DNA of 64,000 nt from Frankiales bacterium (GTDB taxonomy: Bacteria > Actinomycetota > Actinomycetes > JAFAQI01): NCBI GenBank assembly GCA_025980325.1, contig JAICXQ010000005.1, positions 8,034 through 72,033 of the forward strand. Direction: 5' to 3'. The translations under genes were made by a program, and so were the position numbers. Below are positions 708-15,197 of the stretch, piece by piece. The number at the start of each line of letters is the position of its first letter. Positions within the stretch are counted from its first letter, which is position 1. The notes under the pieces are model-generated. The model worked only from the letters and a program-made list of their open reading frames with translations. It did not search any database and was not told the DNA's origin.

Positions 708-1343
708 ATGCTGGCGGTCGGGATCGTCGAAGGCGAGGTGCGCGAGCGCGTCCGCAGCGGCGCGCTGGATCCGGCCGTCGACGCGGTCGCGATCCGCCGC
801 ATCGTCGACGACGTCGTGGCGGACTACTCGCAGCGCCGGCTGACGACGTCGTTGCCGGATCTCGGGGACGCGGCGGCGACCGCGCGCGAGGTGTACGACG
901 CCGTCGCCGGCTTCGGCCCGTTGCAGCGCTACCTCGACGACCCGGGCGTCGAGGAGATCTGGATCAACGAACCCGGCCGGGTGTTCGTCGCGCGCCGGAC
1001 CGGGCCCGAGCTCACGACGACCGTCCTCGGCGACGGCGAGGTACGGGATCTCGTCGAGCGGATGTTGAAGACGTCGGGGCGCCGGCTCGACTTGAGCGCG
1101 CCGTTCGTCGACGCGTCGCTGCCCGACGGCTCGCGGCTGCACGTCGTCATTCCCGACGTGACGAGACGGCATTGGGCCGTGAACATCCGCAAGTTCGTGC
1201 TCTCGGCGTACTCGTTGGGCGAACTCGTCGCGCTCGGTTCGTTGCCGGAGTCGGCGGCGGCCTTTCTCGACGCGGCCGTCGTCGCCGGGCTGAACGTGCT
1301 CGTCGCCGGCGGTACGCAAGCGGGCAAGCCGGTCAATCGCTAA
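708..1343 (+). pseudogene. tadA: TadA/CpaF pilus ATPase, N-terminal fragment (interrupted by integrated element)
   Basis: GPLQRYLDDPGVEEIWINEP, VDASLPDGSRLHVV, NIRKF motifs; stops 4 codons after Walker A GGTQAGK (PVNR*). Confidence 0.93.
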
Positions 1344-1349
1344 TGCACC
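1305..1349. other. attL
   Basis: tadA sequence to GGCAAG, then element arm CCGGTCAATCGCTAATGCACC; arm 1338-1349 is a 10/12 inverted match to 11274-11285. Confidence 0.85.
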
Positions 1350-1424
1350 GTGTCGCGGGCCAGATCGGTTCCGTCCGTGAACTGCGCAGCCGCCCGCGCG
1401 TCGTAGAACAGGGGGCGGTGGCCA

Positions 1425-1444
1425 CGGCAGGCTACAGCCTGCCG
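1425..1444. promoter_or_regulatory. perfect 9-bp inverted repeat near element left end (operator or hairpin)
   Basis: CGGCAGGCT-AC-AGCCTGCCG. Confidence 0.4.
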
Positions 1445-1566
1445 CTGCTGCCGGTCGCCGACGCGGTAGAGGACTCCGCCGTCAAGCCGAGCAGAGGCGG
1501 ACGAGTCCGTCGAGCGCGCGGCGGCAGACGCGCGAAGTCTCGGCTTGACGGTGGAGGGGCCGCGGC

Positions 1567-1954
1567 GGCAGGCAGCCCCCGGTCAGCCGCGAGCGTTGCT
1601 AGGTCAACGGGGCCGCGTCTCGAGGAATCTCGACAACGCGGCGTGCGGGATGACCGAACCGTGCGGGCCACTGTCCGTCGTGCCGTCCTCGCACATAAGG
1701 GGATGCAGGTCGCGTTCGCCCATCCAGCCCTGCATGTCGCTAACCCGGTCTTGCGATCCGAGGATGACAAGTACCTGTGCGGCCGTGTAGCCGCGCGCGC
1801 AGGCAGGCCGGGGCAAGTCGGTTGCTCTCATGAACATGGGTCGCCTCCTTGTCGTACACGCGCGTTTGGCGTGGACGGGGCGCTAGCCCCCATTCGGGAG
1901 ATCCGGGCTGGTAGGCCGTGAGTGGGGACCGGGGTGGCAGGCAGCCCCCGGTCA
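1567..1954. repeat. 19-bp direct repeat flanking the xis-like gene
   Basis: GGCAGGCAGCCCCCGGTCA at 1567-1585 and 1936-1954. Confidence 0.8.
1604..1837 (-). CDS. excisionase-like small DNA-binding protein (candidate recombination directionality factor)
   Basis: AAGGAGG RBS 6 nt before ATG; YTAAQVLVILG...W...DL...VIPHAALSRFLE resembles Xis/MerR-like winged helix pattern; near attL. Confidence 0.6.
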   Translation of the reverse strand: MFMRATDLPRPACARGYTAAQVLVILGSQDRVSDMQGWMGERDLHPLMCEDGTTDSGPHGSVIPHAALSRFLETRPR

Positions 1955-2043
1955 ACCGGAAGCTCGTCGTCGTTCCTGTGTACCGGCGGGCTGGCGCGCC
2001 TCGGAGGCCTCAGTACGCGCTGAGAATCCGAAGGGCGCCAGCT

Positions 2044-2649
2044 CTAGGCGGTCTTCACGGCTGAAGGGGACGGCTGGGGTGTGGATCGGGGTCCGGCGCA
2101 TCCGTTGTCGCCTTCGACCTTGCTGATGCCGGTGTCGAGCGTGACGTACCAACGGGCCGGGTAGACCCGGTCGTGCCCGTCGCTTGTCCTGACGTGGAAG
2201 ACGATTTGGGCTTCGTGGCATCCGGGTTGATTGACGTTCACGGGGACCACGATGCTCAGTTGGTTATCGAGCTTCTGGATAGGAACGCTGTCGAGCGCGG
2301 CACGGCGGGAGCCGGCGAGAACCACGGGGTCGAGAGCGTACGTAAGTTGCGCGCCGTTGTAGTACAGGGAACCTCCATAAACCAGGAGGTACGCATTCGG
2401 AGGATCGAATGGCGCGCTGCCGAGCGCCACCCGCAACTCAATTGATCGGATGCGAACCCGCTGAGTGAATGTTGGGACTCCGACGACGAGGTACATCGGT
2501 TTGTGGAAATGCCAGAAAGACTGGCCGATGGCATTGGGCCTGTAATCATCCATCTTTGGGAGCGGGCTGGCAGCGCAACCGAACACGGCTAACTGGGCGG
2601 CCGTCGCGAGGACGACGGCCGCCCGAAGCCGCAAACTCTTTAGTCGCAT
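2044..2649 (-). CDS. putative lipoprotein
   Basis: MRLKSLRLRAAVVLATAAQLAVFG-C lipobox; start overlaps the stop of the upstream ORF by 10 nt. Confidence 0.7.
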   Translation of the reverse strand: MRLKSLRLRAAVVLATAAQLAVFGCAASPLPKMDDYRPNAIGQSFWHFHKPMYLVVGVPTFTQRVRIRSIELRVALGSAPFDPPNAYLLVYGGSLYYNGAQLTYALDPVVLAGSRRAALDSVPIQKLDNQLSIVVPVNVNQPGCHEAQIVFHVRTSDGHDRVYPARWYVTLDTGISKVEGDNGCAGPRSTPQPSPSAVKTA

Positions 2650-4139
2650 GCGCCGTGTGGCTCGAACTTCGAGCACGGCTGAGGCGCAGCGGGAACTGGT
2701 GGCGGAGTCTTGTAGATCGCGGTGTAGTAGTCGGTTCCGCAGGCCATCTGATACTGGCAGCCGGTCTCCGCCGCATCGTCCACGGCCCAGTAGAAGCACA
2801 AGGGTGCGTTCACCGGCCCACAATCATCGGCGGAGTAGATCGTCGTCTTGTTCTCGTCAGTAGCCGTGCTCTGTGACTCGACCGAGAAGTCGAGGCCGAG
2901 AGGTCCCGACCCGATTGAGGCACCGTACCCGTTCTGGTACGTCTGGCTCTGTCCGGCCGTGATCGCCCTCCACTGGTCTTGCTGCAGCGGGAAGACGAGG
3001 CTCGCGCTTTGCTCCTCCATCCCTTCCAGTGTGTCGTTATTCGTCGGGAAGTCCGGCGTCGAGGTCGTCCCACGCGGGTTCCATTCATGCGGCTGCCACA
3101 ACTCGTGTGTTTCGGTTGAATGGTCTCCGTTATTGCAATGGAACGTAATCGTCTGGTGCTGCCACGTCGCCGGGACAACGAGTGCGCGCGCGCCCTGACC
3201 CGCGACGGAGACCCCGCCGCTTTGGTTAGCGTAGGTCGCTTGATCGCCGGTCGCGAGCGTGAAATTCACACTTCCGGCAGTGGTGTACTTCGTCTGCGTT
3301 AGTCCATGGAGGTCGATTCCTAGCACGACGGATGACTGGGTCACCCGCGACCAGGTAGTTTCGAGAGACTCACCCATCGCGCGGTAGGGCGTATTGCGAA
3401 CATCGGCCTGGTACGAATTCCCGGAATAGGAACCCGCGCCGTAGACCACCCCGACATTCACGGTGCCGTCGACCGACGTCAGACCGCTCGTTGTGATCGT
3501 GAACGCCGGCGGGGTCGGGGGATGTGCCGTGTCAGGGTTATATCCGCATGGCCCCGTGGGCGCAGGATCGCCGACTGGGGGTAGCTGGCCGATGTTGGTC
3601 ACCGGCGGAACCTGAACAAAGAGATTTGGCGAAATCGCGGCGTTAGCGACCGGCTGCTGGGCGGTGATGTTGAAGAACTCGATACCGGTGAACGGAGCGC
3701 CGGTTACATCGTTACCCGTGGAGACCGCGAAGTAGTTGCCGTCGGGGTCGGGGATCGCGCTTGGCTGCGGCAGCGGCACCGTGACGGTTCCCGTTGATGA
3801 GAACGCTGGGACGGGGAGGATTGGCTGCTGCACGCCTTCGGGCTGGTCAGCGCGATAAACCTCGAACTGCGCGTACGCGAGTGGGTGGCCCGCATTGTCG
3901 AGCGCTGTAAGCACCACGCCCGCTGTGATGGGACTGCTCACGGTGGGTGCGGCTGGGCCTGCTGGGATCGTCGGTATACCGATCGGACCGGATATGGCGG
4001 CGACTGCGAACCCCGCGAGGGCGAGGTAGCTCTTTGGAGGCCTTCCTCCGAGCGCGGCGGTGATTGGGTCGACGGCAGCGAACCGTCGAGCAATTCTGAT
4101 CATCTGAGGTGGCTCCGATACAGGCTGGGCAGGAGGCAT
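2640..4139 (-). CDS. secreted beta-rich protein of unknown function (499 aa)
   Basis: long ORF with hydrophobic N-terminal segment, Thr/Ser/Gly-rich body and Cys-rich C-terminus. Confidence 0.75.
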   Translation of the reverse strand: MPPAQPVSEPPQMIRIARRFAAVDPITAALGGRPPKSYLALAGFAVAAISGPIGIPTIPAGPAAPTVSSPITAGVVLTALDNAGHPLAYAQFEVYRADQPEGVQQPILPVPAFSSTGTVTVPLPQPSAIPDPDGNYFAVSTGNDVTGAPFTGIEFFNITAQQPVANAAISPNLFVQVPPVTNIGQLPPVGDPAPTGPCGYNPDTAHPPTPPAFTITTSGLTSVDGTVNVGVVYGAGSYSGNSYQADVRNTPYRAMGESLETTWSRVTQSSVVLGIDLHGLTQTKYTTAGSVNFTLATGDQATYANQSGGVSVAGQGARALVVPATWQHQTITFHCNNGDHSTETHELWQPHEWNPRGTTSTPDFPTNNDTLEGMEEQSASLVFPLQQDQWRAITAGQSQTYQNGYGASIGSGPLGLDFSVESQSTATDENKTTIYSADDCGPVNAPLCFYWAVDDAAETGCQYQMACGTDYYTAIYKTPPPVPAAPQPCSKFEPHGACD

Positions 4140-4199
4140 GAGGCCCCCTGCAATCTTCAGTACGAACGAATAGCGCTGGCATTACCGACATTGGCTAGA

Positions 4200-4907
4200 T
4201 CAAGGCTCGGGCCGAGGCGGGTCGCGGCCGGGAGGTTCGGTGTCGCCGTGGTGACGTTCGGTGTCGCCGTTGTGCGTTGCTGCCGACGATGGGTGCACGA
4301 CGTGATGTCGGAACATGCCGCGCACCGCAGTCCCGAAGTGGTCGATGGTTCTTGCGATGTCCCGGAGGTCGGGCGGTCGCGGGTCGATGAGGTGCGCGGC
4401 GAGGTCCGCAGTGTCGGCGATGAGGCGCGCGAGCACCTGTTCTAGTGGCTGGTCGTCGCGGGGTGCGATGTGCCTGTCTGTGACCCGTGGGTCCTCTCGT
4501 CCGGCGCCTTCGGCCGGGGGCCGCCCCGGTTGACCGCGGTCGCCGTCGTCCCCGAGGGGGCTAGGGTCGCCGACTTGCGCCGTCACGCTGCCGCGCGCCG
4601 GACGAGAGGAAAACTCGGGCCATCCCAGCCCGTTCAACGCGGCTTCAGACCCAACTGCGCTGAGCGTGTCTAGCTCGACTGCTAGCGCGGTCAGTAGGAC
4701 GCCGACGCGAGTCGGGAAGTCATCGCGGACTCGACCGTCGATGACTTGGGCGCCGATCTGCGCCAGATTGGCGAGCCGTTGCCAGAACTTCGGGCTCGGC
4801 GGGGTGCGCTTGGCGTCTAGGGCGTGCCCGACAATCGTGTCGTCGTGGAGCCAGGCGGGAGGCCCTGACCATCTCGATAGGCGCAGGGGAATCACGCTGG
4901 CGGTCAT
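4200..4907 (-). CDS. hypothetical protein
   Basis: 235-aa ORF co-oriented with neighbours; no recognised motif. Confidence 0.45.
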   Translation of the reverse strand: MTASVIPLRLSRWSGPPAWLHDDTIVGHALDAKRTPPSPKFWQRLANLAQIGAQVIDGRVRDDFPTRVGVLLTALAVELDTLSAVGSEAALNGLGWPEFSSRPARGSVTAQVGDPSPLGDDGDRGQPGRPPAEGAGREDPRVTDRHIAPRDDQPLEQVLARLIADTADLAAHLIDPRPPDLRDIARTIDHFGTAVRGMFRHHVVHPSSAATHNGDTERHHGDTEPPGRDPPRPEP

Positions 4908-5003
4908 TCGCGAGCCTCCTTCCGGCTGAATCAGGCATAGGGGTACCTACGCGCGGCGCGCATGTGCGCCGCGCGTTGGTTGGGCGTTCTTAGTTAGTGG
5001 CGG

Positions 5004-5462
5004 CTACGTGCCGAAGCCCGCGCTGTTCTGTTGCGGCGTCCACTCCGTTTCTTCGCTGGCGACGGCCACGAGTTCGGGGGTGGCGCTGGTCTGAACGCCG
5101 GTCGTGTCGATGGGCGGGATGTGGCCAAAGAACAGCGTCGCCGTGAAGCAACCGTCCTCGATGCCGTTGGTCGAGACATCCGGTGAAATACACGTGTCGA
5201 AGGTCGGCCCAAAGCCCGTCTGCTGGTAGTGGATCTGTGTGCCATCCCCACGCGTCCCGTCGACCTCGAACACCCATTCACCCGTGCTATCGGCGATTCC
5301 ACCCGCGCAGACATGGAACGTTGTCGTCGTGGGATAGGTGACTCCGACGGACGCGTGCGCGGTGGGCAATGGGTCGGCAACGGCGCTCGGAATGCCGGTG
5401 GCGCAGGTTCCCGCGGCCAGCAAGGTGCTGGCCGCGATCGCGCGAACTCGACGGTCGTTCAT
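5004..5462 (-). CDS. secreted protein coupled to ECF sigma factor
   Basis: signal peptide MNDRRVRAIAASTLLAAG...AVA; ATGA overlap with sigma stop codon. Confidence 0.75.
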   Translation of the reverse strand: MNDRRVRAIAASTLLAAGTCATGIPSAVADPLPTAHASVGVTYPTTTTFHVCAGGIADSTGEWVFEVDGTRGDGTQIHYQQTGFGPTFDTCISPDVSTNGIEDGCFTATLFFGHIPPIDTTGVQTSATPELVAVASEETEWTPQQNSAGFGT

Positions 5463-6589
5463 AACGGCTCTCCCTTGGGAATCGGGCTCGGGGGTGGCCC
5501 GATTCGCCATTGTGGGTCGCCGGTACGTTTACAGCCAACCGCGGGATTATCCGGGACTTGCTCACAAACCGGCGTTAGGTTTTCGTTGACGCCGTAACCG
5601 CACTCTCCCGTTGCCTTTACGTAGATCCGGTCTCCGCCGGTTTGGTTGTCGTCAGAACAGGCCGAGCCGAAGCAGACGCCCGGAGTGCACGCACTCGGCA
5701 GCTGCGGAACGAGCGTCGGCTCGGCCGTCTTGACGTTTGCACGACCGCGACGGGCCGGCCCGACGCGGGGGGGTGCGTCGGGACGGCCCGTCGCGGTCGT
5801 GGTGGCTGGCGTCGCCGGTTGGCGGGCGACGGCGAGCAGCGTGTGCGTCGCGGTCCCGGATGCCGGCGACGCCGGGAGCGTCAGCGGAGTGGGGACCGCG
5901 GGGAAGGTGAACACCACGAGAACCGAGACGCCGGTGAGGCTCGTCACCATGGGCCGTGCATGTCGTCCGACGGAGCGCCGGACGCTGCGAGCGGCATGCG
6001 CGAATGTACTAACGGGGACGACCGTCGCGACGATCGGGCCGAACCGGTTGCGCGCGAATGCGCGCGCCCGTGTCAGTCGAACGCCGACGGTGTTCGTCGT
6101 GATCCCGAGCCTTTCGGCGATCTGTTCGCGGCTCAGCCCGAGATAGTCGTAGAGGAAGACGGCGGCGAGCTTTTCGGGCATCTTCTCCATGACGCGGACC
6201 ACGTCGGCGTCGACGGCCCATTCGTCTTCGGGATAGACCTCGTCGGTCTGTCGGTCCGACCTGATCGTGGCGAGGTCCGAGTGCGGTTCCTCGCGTGAGT
6301 GAAAGCCCCGACGCAGCAGGTCGGCAAGACGGTTTGTCCCGACCTCTTTGCACCACGCCACCACGAGCCTGGGCTCGGAGGTGTCGATCTGGGTGTGCTT
6401 GTCGTGGAGTTTCAGCCACGCGTCATGGAGAAGGTCTTCGGCGATGTGCGCGCCCATGCCGCCGAGCCGGGCTGTCGCTAGCTGTGTGAAGAACGCCAGA
6501 AGCTCGTCCCGATGCCGGCCGTAGAACTCGTCCGGGTCGAACCCGCGCGGCGGGTCGGCGTCGGTGCCAGGCAACAGTGCCCCCTTCAT
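5459..6589 (-). CDS. ECF sigma factor with C-terminal TM segment and Cys-rich extension
   Basis: region 2 (AEDLLHDAWLKL...AW), region 4 (SREQIAERLGITTNTVGVRLTRAR), hydrophobic segment, Pro/Thr linker, six Cys. Confidence 0.85.
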   Translation of the reverse strand: MKGALLPGTDADPPRGFDPDEFYGRHRDELLAFFTQLATARLGGMGAHIAEDLLHDAWLKLHDKHTQIDTSEPRLVVAWCKEVGTNRLADLLRRGFHSREEPHSDLATIRSDRQTDEVYPEDEWAVDADVVRVMEKMPEKLAAVFLYDYLGLSREQIAERLGITTNTVGVRLTRARAFARNRFGPIVATVVPVSTFAHAARSVRRSVGRHARPMVTSLTGVSVLVVFTFPAVPTPLTLPASPASGTATHTLLAVARQPATPATTTATGRPDAPPRVGPARRGRANVKTAEPTLVPQLPSACTPGVCFGSACSDDNQTGGDRIYVKATGECGYGVNENLTPVCEQVPDNPAVGCKRTGDPQWRIGPPPSPIPKGEPL

Positions 6590-6917
6590 GCTGCCGCCCG
6601 GTTCTGGGTGGTGCCGCGCGTCGCTCGTCGGGTAGTGGGTTTGCTTCTCCTACCTACATAAACGTCGCGAGACCCCCGATTCGTTACAAAACACATTGCG
6701 GCCAACGTGTATGAGGCGCACAAAGGCAGCACTCAACGCGGTCGGGCGCTCGCCGGCTGTCCTCGACGAGCGACGCTGGCGCGCCCCAACATCTAGTTCA
6801 CGGACGAACCGGCCTGTTGTTACATCCCAATTTGCCATCAGGCTCGTTCGGCCAGCCTGCCTAGTCTCTATACGGACGGATAGGCGGTTTGCTTACACGA
6901 CAGTCCAGCATTGTTTT

Positions 6918-7184
6918 TCACGTGTCGCGGACGGGCCGCCCCTCTTGGTCTATGCGTGGCATGAGGGAGCCCGGTTGAAGGCGCAGGACGTGAGCAAGGC
7001 GCGCAATCTGCACGACTCCGGGGTTGGTCAGGCCGCGTTCGATGTTGCTGACGTGGCGGGGGCTCACGTCGGCGGCGAAGGCAAGTTCTTCCTGGGACAG
7101 CCTTGCGCGCAGCCGCGCGGAGCGGAGCTTGTCACCGAGCGCGGCCTGGAACTCTAGATCGGGTTCCTTTGCGATGCGCGGCAC
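6918..7184 (-). CDS. XRE-family HTH transcriptional regulator
   Basis: LGDKLRSARLRARLSQEELAFAADVSPRHVSNIERGLTNPG; GTG start chosen. Confidence 0.88.
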   Translation of the reverse strand: MPRIAKEPDLEFQAALGDKLRSARLRARLSQEELAFAADVSPRHVSNIERGLTNPGVVQIARLAHVLRLQPGSLMPRIDQEGRPVRDT

Positions 7185-7892
7185 CCGGCCAGCGAATGAC
7201 AACCATGCAATCAAATGCCATGAAAAAGAATGTGAGTCTCGCCGTCTCGCGTGGGGATGACGGTTTCTCGCCGCGTGGCGAACACCCGCCATCGGCCGGC
7301 GCTGGCGATTGCGCTCGGCTACCGTCTGCGGCGGTTGGAGCGAGACTTTGGGGGACCCCTGGATGCGACTGCTGACGCACGCGATCTGCGCAACCTGTCT
7401 TGACGCCCGCCTACCGGGCCCGGGTCGCCCCGACGCTTGACATGTCGCGCGAGAACAGCTGCTGCCTCTGTGGCGGCCAGGCGGGGGCGATCTACGTGCG
7501 CGAGTCGTCGGCGTTACCGACGCTGCCCTGGGTCTGCGACCGCCAGCACGGTTAGAACAGCGGGCACGCTAGCGCAGGCGTTGTCGCGTCGCAGCTTTCG
7601 CCGCAGGTGGTGCGGCCCGTCGCGCAACGCCTACGCGGCGGGTCTTGCACGCTCAGGGTAAGCCGAGTTGGCCGGGGGACGGTAGCAATCCATTTCATGG
7701 GTGCAAGGGTGTGCGAGCCGTAGGCGAGGTTCGTTCGTGGCAGCGGACGCTGGCACGAACGAACAGGTCAGGGGAATGTGGGCCGTACGGCCAGGGGTGA
7801 CCAGAAGGTCTGCCGAGGGGAAGGGCCGTACGGTCCTCGGTTGGGGTCCGGCGGCGCGTAGGCGCGGACCGGCTCGGCGGGAAGGCCGGAGA

Positions 7893-7940
7893 GTGTCCCC
7901 GCCAGTGTCCCCCGCGAACGTCCCCGCGAACGTCCCCGCG
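7893..7940. repeat. 12-bp tandem array (GTCCCCGCGAAC-like, about 4 units)
   Basis: TGTCCCCGCCAG TGTCCCCCGCGAAC GTCCCCGCGAAC GTCCCCGCG. Confidence 0.8.
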
Positions 7941-8018
7941 CGTGAGGCGGGTCGTCCGTTAGGCCGGTTCTGGTCCGTTCCCGCGCGGGGGACGACGAAC
8001 CGTGCGCATGGTGAAGGC

Positions 8019-8270
8019 ATGTCCGCCTGTGACGGATGCCTCGGGCGCGGCGAGTGCTGGGTGTGCCTGGGGACCGGCGTGCTCCAAGGCGGGGACGGAT
8101 TCCGGCCCTGCCATCGCTGCTACGGGTCGGGGCGCTGCTGGCTGTGCCAGCAGATCGTGCTCGCGGACATTGAGGACCCGCCGCTGTTCAGCCTCGGCTC
8201 GTGGAGCATCGGACGCCGCAGACGGCCAGGCAGCGATAGCGGGCAAGACCCGCAGCGACGACGGGCGTAG
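8019..8270 (+). CDS. small DnaJ-type zinc-finger protein
   Basis: CDGCLGRGECWVCLGTG and CHRCYGSGRCWLC (CxxCxGxG repeats). Confidence 0.75.
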   Translation: MSACDGCLGRGECWVCLGTGVLQGGDGFRPCHRCYGSGRCWLCQQIVLADIEDPPLFSLGSWSIGRRRRPGSDSGQDPQRRRA

Positions 8271-8799
8271 CCGGACGGCTCGCCACTCGCGGCCGCGTCG
8301 GCTCCTGTCTCGGTGAGACAAGTGTGTGTGGCCCTAGTTGATCTTGGTTGGACCGCTGCCGCGCCCACGTCCCGCGTCCCGTCGTCGCCCGTACCAAGCC
8401 CTGCCCCCGCCTACGCCCCGAACAGCGTCCATCGCTCCATGTGCGGCCTAGCTGGCGCGCCGGGTGACCTGCCCCCTCGGCGCGGCCCGCGCGCCGGGGC
8501 GGCGGGCGGGGGACGCCGCGCGCCCGTAGCCAGCAGACGAGCAGCAGCCAACCGTCAGCGACCCCATGCCAGCCCGCAAGCAAGAGCGCAGACCGAGCCG
8601 ACCCGACATTCCCCTGAGCAAGATCAAAAAGACAAGATCAAACGAATAGTGGATGGCACACAGTTGCATCGCCCGGCAGGCTGGCCCGGCCACGCGCCCG
8701 GCGCGGCCCGTCTCGCGAGCGGCGATTCCGGCCTATTCCTTAGCTGTCGAGTGCTTCTCGCTGCCGCTTTTAGGAGTCAGGGGCTACTCGGTGTTTCAC

Positions 8800-8860
8800 G
8801 CGGGGGAACGGTCGGGGGAATGTCGGCGGGGACGCTGGCGGGGACGTTCGCGGGGACGGT
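8800..8860. repeat. inverted copy of the 12-bp array (GCGGGGACGTTC-like, about 5 units)
   Basis: GGCGGGGACGCTGGCGGGGACGTTCGCGGGGAC is the reverse complement type of 7893-7940. Confidence 0.75.
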
Positions 8861-9343
8861 ACGGGCCGACGCTTCGGCCCCTGAACGGCGAAGGAAGGGG
8901 AGCAGGTGGCAGTGGTCGTGACACCCATCCGCCCGGTCGGCGGACGGTGCCTGCGGCTGCTCCCCGGCGTCGACGCGGCGCAGCGGTCCCCGGCGCGTGC
9001 CGCGTCACGATGGCGCAGAGTGCGTGTGCGCGTGTCCGTGGGCCGGGTGCGCTGGTCGGTGCTCGACGTGGCGTGCGGTGGGGGACACCTTCACATCCGC
9101 TTGTTCGGCGCGCGGCGTTCGGTCCGACTGTGCCGAGGTCGGCGCGGTTCGCGGTCACCTGCTATTGACCCATCGCAGCCGCCGCCTCTGCCGTTGGCCC
9201 TAGGGCCGGAGCGTCGGCATAGCCGGATCGCGTCATCGCGGTTGGTGTTCACCCCTTTCTTCTCTATCAGTCGGGGATCGGAGACGGCCCCTCGGAGGCC
9301 CGCTGACGTGCGGGTTTACCGGCGCGCGGGGGGCCGCGTGTGA

Positions 9344-9420
9344 ACGGCCCACGAGACGGCCTACGAGACGGCCCACGAGACGGCCCACGAGACGGCCCCG
9401 GGGATCTACGAGACGGCCCC
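9344..9420. repeat. 12-bp tandem repeat ACGAGACGGCCC (4 tandem + 1)
   Basis: direct reading; one unit ends CCT; fifth copy after a 9-nt gap. Confidence 0.9.
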
Positions 9421-9677
9421 CCGAGGACCGCGCCGATCCGCAGACGGGCAGTTCGCAACGGTGCGGGCGGCGCGTGTCCCAATCCGTGCGCAGACCGCGA
9501 TTGGTCGGTTAGTAGGCGACAACCAATCGAGTTCCGAAGCGGAGACCAACGTCGATGACAGGCAGCGCAGCGCGTACGGCACAGGCGACAGCGGTCGCCG
9601 CGTGCCCGAGCGATGTGCGCGAGCGGTCGGACCGCGCCGGCCGGACCGGCCGAGGCGACCGGACGCGGCGTAACGGG

Positions 9678-9863
9678 GTGGCGCGAAGCGGGGTACCGGA
9701 CGCGCTGGTGCGCGCATGGGTGGAGGCGTCGTGCCGGGAGCAGGGTGTCGCGGCGGTGATCGCGGACCCCGAGACGATCGCCGCGGTCGTGGCTGTGCTC
9801 ACCGGCCGACCGCCCGGGGGCGCGAACGCGGGACGGCGGCGGCGAGCGGGTCGCGCTGCGTGA
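9678..9863 (+). CDS. small protein convergent with recombinase
   Basis: GTG start; LVRAWVEASCREQGVAAVIADPETIAAVVAVL helical pattern; stop 2 nt from recombinase stop. Confidence 0.5.
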   Translation: MARSGVPDALVRAWVEASCREQGVAAVIADPETIAAVVAVLTGRPPGGANAGRRRRAGRAA

Positions 9864-9865
9864 GG

Positions 9866-11269
9866 TCAGACTCGCCAGATCGCGCGGACGCGGCCGGGGT
9901 CGAGGCGGGGGCTGGGACCCTTCGCCTTGTCGATGACTACGTGGTCGACGACGGTGCGAATGATCGCGGATTGCTGCGAGACGTTGAGGTCATCCCATTC
10001 GGCGCGCAGTCGTTCCCCGGTGCCGACCAGGCCGATCAGCGCGTCGTCGCGGGACAGCCGGGCGATCGCGCGCTCAGTGTCTTTGAGCCGGTCGGCCACA
10101 ACCTGCTTGGCGGTCAGCCATTCGCCCATGCTGATCCGCTTGTCCGCCCACGCGCGGGCTAGTTCCTCAAGCTGCTCGGTGTCCTCGCGGACCTGTGCGG
10201 TCAACCGCTGATAGTCGCTGTCCGCGCCGTGACGCCCAGCCAACGCCTCGGCCATTGCGGGGCTGTCCAGGCGCATCAGAACAGCCTCGGCGATGAAGGC
10301 TTCCAAGCTCGGAGCGGTCACGTACACCTTGCCGCAGCCGCCGAAGTCCGGGCCGGATCGGCACCCGTAGCGGCGGCGGTCCCGGTTCGGGGCAGACACC
10401 ATCTTGCCGCCGCACAGCGCGCACCGGACGAGCCCGGACAGGGAGTAACGGCGCGCAGTCCGCAGCGTGCGCCGGGCCGGGTTCGTCAGCAGCGCCACGA
10501 CGCGCTCGTGCTGCTCAACCGTGATGATCGCGGGCCACGCCGCAGGGCCGACAACCTCGCCGCGATGCTGGCGCAGACCTGCGATGCGTGGAGACATGAG
10601 CAGATTTCGCAACGTCGGGCTGCGCCACACGTTCTTGCCGGTCGAGGTCGTCACACCCTTCTCGCCCAACCAGCCGACGAGCGAGGTAACCGATTCGCCG
10701 GCGAGCAGCCGGGCGACCGCCGCGCGGATCACAGCCGCTTCGTCCTCGCGGATGGTCAGCCCGTCGCGCTCGTAGCCAAACGGGCGTTCGCCTTGGCCGT
10801 GTGGGAGCCCCTTCGCGGCTCGCTCGTCGCTTGCGCGGCGTACGCGTCGGCTTGTCGCGTCGCTGGCGTTGGCCGCGATCGCGGAGAACACCCGCGCGAC
10901 CATGATTCCGTCCGAATTCCCGAGGTCGGTGACCCCGCAGACCGTGGTGAACCGGCGCATCCCGACCCGCTCGCACGCCGCCAGGAATTCCTCGAATTCG
11001 CGCGGGTTCCGGCTGAGCCGGTCCTGGTGGTAGGTGACAAGCGCGTCGAACCGGCGGTCCTCCAGGTCGGCCAGCATCGCCGCGTATTGGGGACGCTCGC
11101 GCCCGCTCCACGCCGAGCGGTCGTTATCGACGTACTCATCGACCACGACCCACCCGCGCTGCTCAACCAAGCGTCGGCAGTCGGCGAGTTGGCGATCCAC
11201 GCCCGCCCGCGTGCCTTCGCGGTCGTCACTAATACGCGCGTAAATCGCAGCCCGAATCATCGTGGTCAT
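9866..11269 (-). CDS. large serine recombinase (integrase)
   Basis: catalytic YARIS; RPQY; DRLSRN; recombinase domain; zinc ribbon LSGLVRCALCGGKM...YGC; coiled coil; intact. Confidence 0.96.
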   Translation of the reverse strand: MTTMIRAAIYARISDDREGTRAGVDRQLADCRRLVEQRGWVVVDEYVDNDRSAWSGRERPQYAAMLADLEDRRFDALVTYHQDRLSRNPREFEEFLAACERVGMRRFTTVCGVTDLGNSDGIMVARVFSAIAANASDATSRRVRRASDERAAKGLPHGQGERPFGYERDGLTIREDEAAVIRAAVARLLAGESVTSLVGWLGEKGVTTSTGKNVWRSPTLRNLLMSPRIAGLRQHRGEVVGPAAWPAIITVEQHERVVALLTNPARRTLRTARRYSLSGLVRCALCGGKMVSAPNRDRRRYGCRSGPDFGGCGKVYVTAPSLEAFIAEAVLMRLDSPAMAEALAGRHGADSDYQRLTAQVREDTEQLEELARAWADKRISMGEWLTAKQVVADRLKDTERAIARLSRDDALIGLVGTGERLRAEWDDLNVSQQSAIIRTVVDHVVIDKAKGPSPRLDPGRVRAIWRV

Positions 11270-11273
11270 AATA

Positions 11274-11320
11274 GGTAGATTAGCGTATAGCAGGCAAGAC
11301 GACGTTGCTCAACTGTTTGG
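11274..11320. other. attR
   Basis: element arm GGTAGATTAGCGTATAGCAGGC-AA-G followed by tadA codons ACG ACG TTG CTC AAC TGT (TTLLNC). Confidence 0.85.
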
Positions 11321-11928
11321 CCGCCGCAGTTCCGGCCCGCGAGCGGGTGGTGACGTGCGAGGAGGTGTTCGAGCTCCGGCTGTCGCTGCCGGACGTCGTC
11401 GCGATGCAGACGCGGCCGCCGAACCTCGAAGGCACCGGCGAGATTCCGTTGCGGCGCTTGGTCAAGGAGTCGCTGCGGATGCGACCCGATCGGCTGATCG
11501 TCGGCGAGGTGCGGCAGGAGGAATGCCTCGACCTGCTGGTCGCGCTGAACTCCGGCGTCCCGGGCATGTGCTCGTTGCACGCGAACTCCGCGCGCGAGGC
11601 GATCACGAAGATGTGCACGCTGCCGCTGCTCGCCGGCGAGAACGTGACGCATGCGTTCGTCGTCCCGACCGTCGCGAACAGCGTCGACATCGTCGTCCAC
11701 ATCGGGCGCGACGGCAGCGGTCGGCGGGTGGTGCGCGAGATCGTCGGCGTTCCCGGCCGGGTCGAAGGCGACGTCATCGAGGTGGCGGATCTGTTCGTCA
11801 CCCGCGGCGGCCGGCTGATCCGCGCGGACGGCTGGCCGCCGCATCCCGAGCGGTTCGTCGCCGCCGGCATCGATCTCGCCCGGCTGCTGTTCCCGCTCCC
11901 TGACGTCGACGGCGGGCTGGACCCGTGA
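11299..11928 (+). pseudogene. tadA: TadA/CpaF ATPase, C-terminal fragment
   Basis: TTLLNCL, TCEEVFEL, LRMRPDRLIVGEVR (Walker B), SLHANS (His box). Confidence 0.93.
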
Positions 11929-12788
11929 CCGGCGCGGTGATCGGTCTCGTCGCCGGGCTCGGAGCGGTGCTCGTGGTCGCCGCCTCGACGTCGGCCCGAA
12001 CGTCACGTCCCGCGGTGCGAGCCCCGGTCTCCGGTCGGCTCGCCGACGTGTACGTTCGGGCCGGCTTGCCGCCCGGCAGCCATCGGCGAATCGTCGCGGC
12101 GGTCATCGGCGGCGGGATCGCGGTCTTCATGCTCGTGGGCTCCGTCTCGGGGTCGCCCGCGATCGCGTTGGCGTTCGGCGGCTTCGGCGCCTATGCGCCG
12201 GTCGCGCTCGTCGCGCGCAGGGCGCGACTGCGGACCGCCGAGCGACGGGAACTGTGGCCCGACGTCGTCGACAACCTCGCGTCGGCCGTGCGCGCCGGCC
12301 TGTCGTTGCCGGAGGCGCTGACGCAACTCGGCGAACGCGGGCCGGCACCGCTGCGCGCGGAGTTCGTCGCGTTCGGCCGCGACTACGCGGCCACTGGTCG
12401 GTTCGGCGACTGCCTCGACCGGCTGAAAGAGCGGCTCGCCGATCCCGTCGGCGATCGGATCGTCGAAGCGCTGCGGCTCGCCCGCGAGGTCGGCGGCAGC
12501 GACCTCGGCCGGCTGTTGCGCAGCCTCTCGCAGTTCCTGCGCGACGACGCGCGCACGCGAGCCGAGCTCGTCACCCGCCAAGGCTGGACCGTCAACGCCG
12601 CGCGGCTGGCGCTCGCGGCGCCGTGGGTCGTCCTCGCGTTGCTGTCGTTGCGGCCGGAAACCGTCGCGGCGTACGACAGCCCGCAAGGTGTCGTCGTGCT
12701 CGCCGTCGGCGGTGCGGTGTCGCTCCTCGCGTACCGGTTGATGTTGCGGATCGGCCGGCTGCCCGACGACGAGCGGGTGTTGCGGTGA
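11925..12788 (+). CDS. tadB: Tad pilus assembly protein TadB (T2SSF domain)
   Basis: WPDVVDNLASAVRAGLSLPEAL; GTGA overlap with tadA. Confidence 0.9.
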   Translation: MTGAVIGLVAGLGAVLVVAASTSARTSRPAVRAPVSGRLADVYVRAGLPPGSHRRIVAAVIGGGIAVFMLVGSVSGSPAIALAFGGFGAYAPVALVARRARLRTAERRELWPDVVDNLASAVRAGLSLPEALTQLGERGPAPLRAEFVAFGRDYAATGRFGDCLDRLKERLADPVGDRIVEALRLAREVGGSDLGRLLRSLSQFLRDDARTRAELVTRQGWTVNAARLALAAPWVVLALLSLRPETVAAYDSPQGVVVLAVGGAVSLLAYRLMLRIGRLPDDERVLR

Positions 12789-13669
12789 CCGGTGCCGTCA
12801 TCGGACTGGTTGCCGCAGCCGGGTGCTGGAACGTCGGAAAATCGTTGCGGCGACAGCGGTTTCGTCTCGTCGAGCGAATCGGGCCGTACGTCGACGCGCC
12901 GCCCGCTCGGCGGTCGAGCTCACCCAGGGATGTCGTGCGATCGCTGCTCGTCCGCCGCCTCGATCGGGCGCTCGGCGGATCGGCGTCGGTACGCCGCCGG
13001 CTGGCCGCGCTCGGCGACGACGGTGCGGTCGAGCAGTTCCGTGTCGAGCAGCTGACGTGGGCGGGCGCCGGGCTGCTGGTGGCGTTGGTGCTGCCCGGTC
13101 TCGCGATGACCCGCGGCGCGGCGGTGTCGCCGGCGTTGATGGTCGTGCTCTCCGCGGTGTCGACGATCGGTGGTGCGCTCGGCCGTGACCGGTGGCTGTC
13201 CGCGCAGGTCGCGCGGCGCGAGGAGCGGATGCTGGCCGAGTTGCCGGCGATCGCGGAGATGCTCGCGCTGTCGGTGGGCGCCGGCGAAGGCGTGACCGGC
13301 GCCCTCGACCGGGTGTCCCGGATCGCTCGCGGCGATCTCGCCGGCGAGTTGCGGCGCACCCTCGCGGACGCGCGCGCCGGCACGCCGGTCGTCGACGCCT
13401 TGACCCGGATGGCCGGCCGTTCGTCCTTGCCGGCACTCGCCCGCTTCGTCGACGGGATCGCGGTCGCGGTCGATCGCGGTACGCCGCTGGCGGATGTGTT
13501 GCGCGCGCAGGCCGGTGACGTGCGCGAGGAGCGCCGCCGGTCGCTGCTGGCCGTCGGCGGCCGCAAGGAGATCGCGATGTTGTTCCCGGTCGTCTTCCTG
13601 GTGTTGCCGGTCACCGTCGTGTTCGCGCTCTATCCCGGATTCGCCAACCTCTCGCTCGCGGTGCCGTGA
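12785..13669 (+). CDS. tadC: Tad pilus assembly protein TadC
   Basis: ELPAIAEMLALSVGAGEG...GTPLADVLRAQA...MLFPVVFLVLP; GTGA overlap. Confidence 0.9.
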   Translation: MTGAVIGLVAAAGCWNVGKSLRRQRFRLVERIGPYVDAPPARRSSSPRDVVRSLLVRRLDRALGGSASVRRRLAALGDDGAVEQFRVEQLTWAGAGLLVALVLPGLAMTRGAAVSPALMVVLSAVSTIGGALGRDRWLSAQVARREERMLAELPAIAEMLALSVGAGEGVTGALDRVSRIARGDLAGELRRTLADARAGTPVVDALTRMAGRSSLPALARFVDGIAVAVDRGTPLADVLRAQAGDVREERRRSLLAVGGRKEIAMLFPVVFLVLPVTVVFALYPGFANLSLAVP

Positions 13670-13692
13670 AAGTGACGAAAGGAAGCTTGCTC

Positions 13693-13869
13693 ATGTTTGC
13701 GTATCTGCGCCGGCGGATCCGGTTCGACGATCGCGGTGACGTGCCCGGTTGGGTGCTCGTCACGTTGATGACCGCGGGCATCGTCATGGCGTTGTGGATC
13801 GTCGCCGAGCCGAAGTTGTCGAGCCTGCTCAGCAACGCGCTCAACGTCAGTGGCGATCCGAGCAAGTAA
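13693..13869 (+). CDS. Flp-type pilin
   Basis: 58 aa; DDRG|DVPGWVLVTLMTAG hydrophobic helix; GAAAGGAAG RBS; position after tadC. Confidence 0.8.
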   Translation: MFAYLRRRIRFDDRGDVPGWVLVTLMTAGIVMALWIVAEPKLSSLLSNALNVSGDPSK

Positions 13870-13873
13870 GCCG

Positions 13874-14272
13874 ATGTCGCGCCGGCCGGGCGGCGATGCC
13901 GGTGCCGCCGTCGTCGACTTCGTCCTGGTCGGCGCGCTGCTCACGATGTTGTTCCTCGCCGTCTTGCAGGTCGCGCTGGACTTCTACGTACGCAACGTGC
14001 TGGCCGCGGCCGCGGCGGACGGCGCGCGCTACGCCGCCAACGCCGACGTCGGCGACGCGCGGGCCGGTGCGGAGCGCGCGAACGAATTGATCCGCTCCTC
14101 GCTCGGCGCGAGTTACGCGCGGGCGCGGCCGGCCGCGGATGTCGCGGACGTCGACGGCGCGCCGGTCGTCGGCATCACCGTGTCGGCGCGGCTGCCGTTG
14201 CTCGCCTGGTTCCTGCCCGTCGGGCCGACGGTGACGGTGACCGGGCATGCGCTCATGGAGCCGCCGCGATGA
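13874..14272 (+). CDS. tadE: TadE-like pseudopilin
   Basis: DAG|AAVVDFVLVG...AAADGARYAA. Confidence 0.85.
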   Translation: MSRRPGGDAGAAVVDFVLVGALLTMLFLAVLQVALDFYVRNVLAAAAADGARYAANADVGDARAGAERANELIRSSLGASYARARPAADVADVDGAPVVGITVSARLPLLAWFLPVGPTVTVTGHALMEPPR

Positions 14273-14721
14273 GGGCGTTGTGCGTGCGCGACGACGGTTC
14301 GGCGGTGGTCGAGTTCGTCTGGCTGGGCGTGCTGCTGCTGGTGCCGCTCGTCTATGTCGTGCTGGCCGCGCTCGCCGTGCAGGGCGCCGCGTTCGCCGAG
14401 ACGGCGGCGGCGCGCGAGGCCGCCCGGGCATATGCCACCGCCGGATCGGACGCGCTCGGCGAGCAACGGGCCGAAGCCGCGGTCGCGCTGGTGATGCACG
14501 ACCACGGCGTGCCGTGGACGCCATCCGGCCGGGTCGTGTCGTGCGGTTCGTGTTCGTACCAGCCTGGCTCGACGTTCACCGTCGACCTACGCCGTACGGT
14601 GGCGCTGCCGTTCGTGCCGTCGTGGTTGTGCGGGCGGCGCTGCGTCGCCGGCATCGTCGTGTCCGCGCACCATCGGGAGCGGATCGACTGCTTCGCGGGG
14701 ACCGGCGAAGCCACGTGTTGA
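14269..14721 (+). CDS. TadE/TadF-like pseudopilin
   Basis: DDG|[10 protein letters not shown]...AAAREAARA. Confidence 0.85.
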
Positions 14722-15197
14722 CGCGTCGCCGGGACGAGGGCCAGATGTCGTTGCTGATCATCGGGTACGCGGCGATCGCACTCGTCCTCGTCGTCGTCGG
14801 GATCGACGCCTCCGCGGTGTTCCTGGCCCGTCGCGGGCTCGCCTCGGCCGCCGATGCGGCCGCGCTCGACGCGGCGCAGGCGGTCGACCGGGCCGCGGTC
14901 TACTCCGGTTCGATCGGCGGCTGCGGCGCGACGCTGCCGATCGACGCGCCGGCCGCACGCGAGCGGGTGCTCGCGGACGTCGCCGACGACAGCGACGACC
15001 TGACCCACGTATTCCGCCAACTCGACCAGCCGGACGTCGCCGTCGACGGTGGCACCGTGACCGTGCGCCTGACCGGACGGGCAAAGGTCCCGTTCGGGCG
15101 GCTGCTCGGCAAGCTGCTGCCCGGCCACGCGGGCGGCGCCGTCGAGGTCGATGTCACCGCCCACGCGCGGTCGCCGGTCTCGTCAGGCGGCTGCTGA
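14715..15197 (+). CDS. TadG-like pilus assembly protein
   Basis: DEG|QMSLLIIGY...[13 protein letters not shown]. Confidence 0.8.

Follow-up and report, generated by a model that had tools for sequence, protein, structure and literature searches.

We investigated a stretch of 64,000 nucleotides from the genome of a Frankiales bacterium (contig JAICXQ010000005.1; hereafter the window, whose positions are used throughout), in which tadA, also named cpaF, the ATPase gene of a Tad/Flp pilus locus, is split within its Walker A codons by an integrative element of 9,970 bp (1329..11298, one copy of the core included). The element encodes its own large serine recombinase (LSR), and its removal rejoins the two halves of tadA precisely and in frame. 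A survey of other genomes showed that the same gene is interrupted repeatedly across Actinomycetota. Taken together, the data make it rather probable that the tadA element is selfish DNA using a conserved, dispensable gene as a safe landing site.

tadA is split in its Walker A motif and can be restored in frame

The tadA gene starts at ATG 708 and its N-terminal half (708..1328, plus strand, residues 1-207) ends ...VLVAGGTQAGK at base 1328, the last codon being that of the Walker A lysine; translation would then run into the element, which adds PVNR and a TAA stop at 1341-1343. The C-terminal half (11299..11928, plus strand, residues 208-416) lies beyond the element. Positions 11290-11298 read GCAGGCAAG and are followed by ACGACGTTGCTCAAC, encoding TTLLN, and the tadA frame after the hexamer at 11293-11298 continues ACG ACG TTG CTC AAC TGT TTG, i.e. 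TTLLNCL. Fusion of the 621 nt of 708-1328 to the 630 nt of 11299-11928 yields a stop-free open reading frame (ORF) of 416 amino acids with a complete Walker A motif, GGTQAGKTT. On the Pfam T2SSE profile (PF00437) the N-terminal half matches positions 4-157 and the C-terminal half positions 159-273, and the halves are therefore exactly contiguous. An earlier note on this DNA had proposed the split between GGTQAGK (1328) and TTLLNCL (11299) and the in-frame rejoining to 416 residues, and every detail was borne out. The tadA element thus shows one mark of the regulated gene-intervening elements, the precise in-frame interruption of a host gene by an element with a recombinase of its own.

The hexamer GGCAAG is present at both junctions, as the attL copy of the core at 1323-1328 and as the attR copy at 11293-11298, and no longer sequence is common to the two. 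The attP site rebuilt from the ends of the element, TAGGTAGATTAGCGTATAGCAGGC-AA-GCCGGTCAATCGCTAATGCACCGT, exhibits 15 dyad matches out of 24 about the central AA, compared with 6.7 ± 2.2 for random 50-mers of the element, 0.06% of which reach 15; the same result was obtained for the related element of Aeromicrobium described below. As the dyad is centred on AA, the crossover is placed at this dinucleotide within the common GGCAAG, that is at 1326-1327 in attL and 11296-11297 in attR. Short sites with an imperfect dyad around a 2-bp crossover and without a long duplication are those of a serine integrase. The predicted attB junction (1328 to 11299) contains GCAAGCGGGCAAGACGACGTTG and the predicted attP junction (11298 to 1329) contains GTATAGCAGGCAAGCCGGTCAATCG.

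The source genome is a metagenome-assembled genome (MAG), 68% complete and in 129 contigs, with the window on contig 78. The closest homologues of its TadA, which carry the source name CpaF, are labelled as Frankiaceae or Mycobacteriales MAGs. Two genomes of the same genus (G001 and G002) have an uninterrupted tadA, with 91-93% protein identity and an empty site. The exact recombinase protein was found on two Logan contigs from other runs (L064 and L065; SRR34502220 and SRR34502222), and on both the recombinase joins the C-terminal half of tadA at the identical attR junction. In comparison with the window, these contigs show 1 mismatch in about 1,900 nt of the element and 4 mismatches in 224 nt of tadA, one of the four being the ancestral Ile at residue 218; by our own binomial estimate, the probability of this skew is about 6e-4. 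With far fewer mismatches than tadA, the element appears to postdate the divergence of its host strains, as would be expected of a recently mobile element. Exact-protein look-ups of the N-terminal half of tadA, tadB and two cargo proteins returned no record, the LSR being the only one on record.

An intact recombinase and a conserved small ORF

The LSR gene (9866..11269, minus strand, 467 residues, intact) lies at the right end of the element and points inward, with its start codon 29 nt from the right junction. The protein presents Resolvase, Recombinase and Zn_ribbon_recom domains (PF00239, PF07508 and PF13408, all above cut-off) and matches the integrase family phrog_95 (E = 4e-100), and Y10, R12 and S14 do not vary among the 10 LSRs aligned. 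The start codon is preceded by a conserved GCTAATCT box. This box, GCTAAT(C/G)T, lies about 8 nt before the start codon, is kept in relatives and forms part of the attP arm; its position makes it a plausible −10 element for a leaderless LSR transcript.

Convergent with the recombinase is a small ORF of about 62 residues (9677..9863, plus strand) with the motif ALVRAWVEASCxxQGVxxxIxDP. It adjoins the LSRs of the window lineage whatever their target gene and has no Pfam match; this constant association makes it a candidate LSR partner or directionality factor. At the left end, another small ORF of 80 residues (1340..1582, minus strand; G+C at third codon positions 0.81; no family match) would fall just upstream of the recombinase, across attP, in the excised circle.

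Scans with Pfam, PHROG, NCBIfam and PADLOC detected among the proteins of the element none with a role in phage structure, conjugation, replication or defence; none of the ORFs scanned had a Pfam match to an FtsK/SpoIIIE transfer gene, and Rfam gave no match within the element. A prophage identity was rejected, as no structural PHROG or Pfam match (terminase, portal, capsid, tail) was obtained, and a defence-island reading of the cargo was rejected because PADLOC gave no defence gene.

Relatives place the element in a lineage of small LSR elements

The identical crossover, with homologous att arms, is occupied in three genomes: that of the window, that of a member of another genus of the same family (G020), and that of the cultured Aeromicrobium stalagmiti YC3-14. 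The element of G020 measures 8.6 kb, its recombinase is decayed and the C-terminal half of its tadA is frameshifted at residue 363. The element of A. stalagmiti is 5 kb long and encodes an LSR 49% identical to that of the window over the full length; the interrupted N-terminal half ends in GKPTNS* there and in GKPVNR* in the window. It also encodes a rolling-circle replication protein (Rep, PF23343), followed by an ORF of 64 residues with the motif DAWLRQSCxxSGVPxxVTDP, which recurs in the window at 9677-9863 and beside metagenomic relatives.

The Rep of family PF23343 adjoins the LSRs of most relatives. In the window, the position of the Rep gene in relatives is taken by about 2.4 kb without clear codon periodicity (7300..9676), and no Rep remnant, as would mark an actinomycete integrative (conjugative) element, was detected in the element by tblastn or with a profile hidden Markov model. 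From this gene content, the tadA element is most aptly placed within a family of small integrative elements with LSR and Rep, as a Rep-less and probably non-autonomous member that has retained its LSR and small ORF. The retention of these two genes despite the loss of Rep is evidence for at least a predicted competence for excision. A second LSR of the same genome (L026; contig 76: 8581-10940), 42% identical to that of the window, has a PF23343 Rep alongside and belongs to an element adjoining the 5' end of a gamma-glutamylcyclotransferase-like ORF. This second element could supply Rep in trans to the tadA element.

LSRs 45-52% identical to that of the window were also found in metagenomes of the Joint Genome Institute, none of them adjoining tadA. 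Three of them (L047-L049, 51-52% identical) are inserted in the HNH endonuclease motif of a REP13E12-like gene, and two others (L051 and L058, 45% identical) in the Walker B region (GVLFLDELGEF) of a Mg-chelatase/ComM-family gene. Comparison of the cargo ORFs with the related loci by tblastn revealed no cargo in common, and a tblastx search across all loci with the element yielded high-GC noise only and was discarded. IMG/VR contains no relative of the window LSR. The cultured phage genomes carry no tadA fragment, and the LSRs of sequenced cultured phages are at most 35-37% identical to the tadA-targeting LSRs.

tadA is a recurrent target across Actinomycetota

The rejoined TadA was used as the query of a genome survey, in which the breakpoints of other genomes were read from tblastn alignment ends and are accurate to a few residues. 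Split matches at contig ends, with an exact abutment or an overlap of about one k-mer (G060, G250), were not counted as insertions, and the frequencies, being drawn from samples, are lower bounds. Within the family, tadA is interrupted in 5 of the 26 genomes that bear the gene, at different sites. Of 401 genomes sampled evenly from the class, 244 have an orthologue, and in at least 14 of these, about 6%, foreign DNA lies inside tadA. The breakpoints fall at about eight positions, all within conserved motifs: near residues 129, 150-155 and 160; at about 205-210, the Walker A region, where three or four different crossovers occur within 20 nt; at about 232 (EEVFE^L); at about 272, in Walker B; and near 282-287 and 297. 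The inserts range from 5 kb to 74 kb, and most breakpoints are adjoined by LSRs whose mutual identity is only 22-45%. Two separate insertions are present in one tadA in G045 and in a Pedococcus sp.

When the species representatives of GTDB were scanned with an alignment of three LSRs from site 232, 256 relatives were recovered, and among the best 80 of these 256 a tadA-like fragment lies directly beside the recombinase in 40. The tadA-adjoining relatives come from Pedococcus, Intrasporangium, Janibacter hoylei, Nocardioides pinisoli, Geodermatophilus and about 21 species of Streptomyces. In Streptomyces the target is a T2SSE ATPase gene followed by a T2SSF gene, cut at GSGK^TT; 17 of the 18 LSRs associated with it are intact, and their divergence follows that of the host gene (r = 0.85). 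A family of Streptomyces prophages of 38-40 kb (L096-L145) occupies the Walker A codons of this tad-like gene, and its member in S. tendae JCM 4610 (G425:C2:130613-170103) encodes portal, capsid and primase-polymerase. Full prophages, with a terminase or portal gene plus a capsid gene, were thus found in the tad-like gene of S. tendae JCM 4610 and in tadA of Acidothermaceae bacterium B102, a complete genome. The survey of relatives suggested in the earlier note revealed both the same crossover occupied in G020 and Aeromicrobium and further LSR lineages at other positions of the gene.

Some arrangements at the surveyed loci deserve separate mention. In G069 (contig 2, L027), a 17-kb insert at tadA residue ~160 holds an orphan tadA fragment (9653-9742) that corresponds to residues 183-210 and ends exactly at the Walker A site; its limits suggest the trace left by a former Walker A-site element. 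In two genomes of one genus, G023 (L024/L025) and G045 (L034/L035), the N-terminal part of tadA runs to residue 286/287 and then meets an LSR, and the C-terminal part, on another contig, begins at residue 237 with identical amino acids; this apparent duplication of 150 bp of tadA is not a product of LSR recombination. The MAG contigs of G053, G060, G240, G250 and G391 end exactly at hotspot positions of tadA, a pattern of breakage that arises where a population contains both occupied and empty alleles but is also compatible with ordinary fragmentation.

No paper in which tadA or cpaF is described as an attachment site turned up in our literature searches, in agreement with the earlier statement that no described Tad-pilus example was known. 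Nor did we encounter a description of an attB in the Streptomyces tad-like ATPase gene, and the searched text of PMC12924846 does not list tadA among the targets.

State of the tad locus and cargo of the element

The rest of the tad operon (11925..15197, plus strand) is open in every gene. It comprises tadB (T2SSF, 11925-12788), whose start overlaps the tadA stop, tadC (T2SSF, about 12794-13669), a Flp-like ORF of 67 residues (13666-13869), two TadE-like ORFs (13850-14272 and 14269-14721) and a TadG-like ORF (about 14712-15197). With its T2SSE ATPase, two T2SSF proteins, Flp-like pilin and TadE/TadG pseudopilins, the locus has the full composition of a Tad/Flp system. The Pfam domains and open frames confirm the earlier claim that the recombinase, tadB, tadC, the pilin and the pseudopilins are undisrupted.

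The ratio of nonsynonymous to synonymous substitution rates (dN/dS) was 0.07-0.15 for the N-terminal half and 0.04-0.08 for the C-terminal half of tadA against intact orthologues. Over the whole gene it was 0.06-0.12, compared to 0.09 between two intact orthologues, and TadA shows 11 amino-acid changes private to the lineage of the window, against 10 and 17 in the intact lineages. The dN/dS comparison that had been suggested as a check thus shows no relaxed constraint; it does not discriminate between the readings, however, since dS between the compared species is 0.4-0.6 and a recent insertion would leave no trace.

The source genome has other secretion or pilus ATPases. A further T2SSE-like ATPase of the window, in an open frame of 870 residues, lies at about 55356-55742 (minus strand) and is 31% identical; a T2SSE paralogue at a contig edge (contig 129:1-276) is 38% identical and may belong to a second tad locus.

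The G+C content of the element is 60-65% over 2000-4500, compared with about 70-75% in the tad genes (11.5-15 kb). Its cargo genes, all on the minus strand, begin with two overlapping ORFs of 259 and 499 residues (2044..4139) that show codon-position G+C bias, have uncertain start codons and gave no Pfam, PHROG, NCBIfam or PADLOC match. Two ORFs of 235 residues (4200..4907) and 168 residues (5004..5510), to which no family was assigned, are followed by an extracytoplasmic function (ECF)-type sigma-70 factor with a long C-terminal extension (5459..6589; PF08281, PF07638, TIGR02937) and by a regulator that matches the profiles of XRE/HTH_3 repressors (6918..7292). Inverted arrays of a 12-bp repeat (GAACGTCCCCGC-like), at 7892-7940 and 8801-8873, flank a small CxxC-rich ORF (8010-8270), and a separate tandem array of the 12-bp ACGGCCCACGAG lies at 9344-9419 in a stretch without coding signal. 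By their arrangement, these repeat arrays look like iterons or operators.

Discussion

In the reading that we favour, a 9,970-bp non-phage element would have entered tadA by site-specific recombination of its serine recombinase at the AA in the region of the Walker A lysine codon. In the integrated state TadA would lack a complete P-loop, and 10 kb of DNA, mostly antisense, would separate the downstream operon from its promoter; the Tad pilus is therefore most likely off as long as the element is in place, with a presumed polar effect on tadB-G. The lineage is one of small actinobacterial integrative elements in which an LSR is combined with a conserved small ORF and a rolling-circle Rep, and with the loss of Rep the element of the window is probably non-autonomous. 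Such attachment at tadA/cpaF in the chromosome appears as a phylum-wide habit of many LSR lineages, of small elements as well as of full temperate phages. The most economical explanation is that tadA is favoured because it is dispensable, highly conserved in its DNA sequence and present as a single copy in nearly all genomes. On excision, the LSR together with a directionality factor would restore tadA precisely.

This reading agrees with the sporadic occurrence of the element, with an empty site in both same-genus genomes, and with the targeting of other conserved genes, REP13E12-like and comM-family, by close LSR relatives. Of the two possibilities raised in the earlier note, a switch of piliation and a parasite on a conserved motif, the comparative evidence leans to the second, and all of it is compatible with reversible excision. 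Several observations weigh against the landing-site reading. The tadA halves, tadB-G and the LSR are all intact and the constraint on tadA is unrelaxed, which fits a very recent insertion and equally a function kept through periodic excision. An LSR and a small ORF kept without Rep would look like a domesticated excision module. Finally, conservation and dispensability alone leave the convergence of many LSRs on many positions of tadA unexplained.

This convergence bears on an alternative in which the disruption itself benefits the element, either because loss of tadA blocks natural transformation, and with it chromosomal curing, or because it removes the pilus receptor of competing phages. 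We hold such a benefit to be unlikely as the explanation here, and slightly less so the broader claim that tadA/cpaF, perhaps the whole Tad locus, is a dedicated LSR attachment site since shutdown of the pilus benefits the element and excision is reversible for the host. Tad-dependent actinophages are, to our knowledge, not known. As to transformation, tadA would be targeted for the same reason as comM, comK and comYC in other phyla, and many independent LSR lineages at several positions of the gene indicate selection on the target gene and not on a particular sequence. The competence pilus of Micrococcus luteus, through which DNA is taken up, is encoded by a tad locus of exactly this gene order (PMC4322843). 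Convergence on one gene is predicted by the hypothesis of mobile elements versus competence (PMC4774983, PMC12378983), whose 2025 review explicitly left Tad pili out, and the LSRs 45% identical to ours sit in a comM-family gene, a classic competence target (PMC4774983, PMC11441513). ComEC is encoded in both same-genus genomes and in 11 of the 13 genomes searched; however, it is widespread and thus not diagnostic, and it was not found in the genome of the window, a 68%-complete MAG. The insertions in tadA are recurrent and independent, as for competence-gene disruptors, but transformability, or DNA uptake through Tad pili, in this uncultured lineage is argued by analogy with M. luteus and from ComEC in relatives, and other LSR relatives target an HNH gene unrelated to competence. 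If this account were true, tadA would play in actinobacteria the part that comM, comK and comYC play in other phyla, its disruption preventing curing by transformation or superinfection, and the element of the window might be a minimal excision module of LSR and small ORF.

A host-serving switch, in which cue-driven excision by the LSR and a directionality factor restores tadA and piliation, possibly followed by re-integration, appears distinctly improbable. In its favour are the precise in-frame restoration of tadA, the intact LSR and the tad operon without decay. The absence of phage, conjugation and replication genes next to a retained LSR and putative directionality-factor ORF recalls the non-prophage element gin (PMC5595907), and the largely intact Streptomyces LSRs, diverging with their host gene, point the same way. 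Yet the element is absent from two genomes of its own genus and sporadic in its family, which is not the distribution of a stably inherited element, and its lineage is otherwise a replicating mobile element. The decay of tad genes in carriers, which the earlier note had named as evidence against a switch, was seen in part: the window locus is undecayed, but G020 has a decayed recombinase and a frameshifted tadA at the same site. Two genomes carry two independent insertions in one tadA, and two excisions would therefore be needed. No intact TadA of the window strain was present in a collection of 15 billion proteins, in which the best match is 95% identical. The directionality factor is a candidate ORF, and the known developmental examples excise in terminally differentiated cells, a cell type not known here.

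That a chimeric MAG contig joined pieces of tadA to unrelated DNA, as the fragmented and incomplete assembly might suggest, is hardly credible, since the junctions are exactly complementary with a core common to both, homologous junctions are known from isolate genomes, and the right junction recurs in two independent public assemblies, contrary to the chimerism at the junctions that the earlier note had named as a possible refutation.

The survey outweighs the single locus in importance: the Tad ATPase gene is struck repeatedly across Actinomycetota, at about eight positions, by small elements and complete temperate phages. Tad pili are competence pili in Micrococcus luteus and adhesion organelles elsewhere, and the recurrent targeting of tadA therefore makes two questions testable in Actinobacteria, namely whether mobile elements counter transformation by disabling the uptake machinery and whether piliation is made reversible by LSR excision. 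Carriers available in culture are Aeromicrobium stalagmiti YC3-14, Nocardioides pinisoli STR3, Janibacter hoylei PVAS-1, Intrasporangium zincisolvens, Geodermatophilus sp. CPCC 205761 and Streptomyces tendae JCM 4610. A further product of the survey is a set of new LSR/att pairs whose attB is conserved and predictable.

Comparison with known systems

Actinomycete integrative (conjugative) elements of the pSAM2 type combine an integrase with a rolling-circle Rep. In the classical members, which also encode an FtsK-like transfer protein, the integrase is of the tyrosine type and acts on tRNA genes. The relatives of the tadA element likewise pair an integrase with a Rep (PF23343), whereas the tadA element itself has an LSR, no Rep and, among the ORFs scanned, no FtsK/SpoIIIE match in Pfam. 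Actinobacterial LSRs that integrate within conserved protein-coding genes include those of phiRv1 (REP13E12) and Bxb1 (groEL1) and the Streptomyces phage integrases of phiC31, phiBT1 and Samy. The target of phiRv1, REP13E12, is an HNH gene of a kind similar to that occupied by the metagenomic LSR relatives at 51-52% identity.

Bacillus cereus ATCC 10987 has in gerE the gin element, likewise a small non-prophage element in a short conserved coding region, which, like the tadA element, is bounded by LSR att sites and encodes its own LSR; its excision restores the ORF, as that of the tadA element would (PMC5595907). Excision of gin has been shown experimentally and is sporulation-specific, whereas the tadA element is known from sequence, in an uncultured actinobacterial host and with a pilus ATPase as target. 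In SPbeta/spsM and skin/sigK of B. subtilis and C. difficile, an LSR (SprA, SpoIVCA) together with a directionality factor reconstitutes the gene precisely (PMC4191935, PMC5499854, PMC5025042). SPbeta and skin are fixed in their species and excise in the terminal mother cell; the tadA element, in contrast, is sporadic and its directionality factor is a candidate. The Listeria comK prophage, AbaR in comM and the prophage in comYC also represent recurrent, site-specific interruption of competence genes, by an LSR in the case of comK (PMC4774983, PMC12378983, PMC11441513), whereas for tadA a role in DNA uptake is drawn from M. luteus (PMC4322843). Gene-interrupting LSR elements are well known, and to them the window adds a new target gene, not a new principle.

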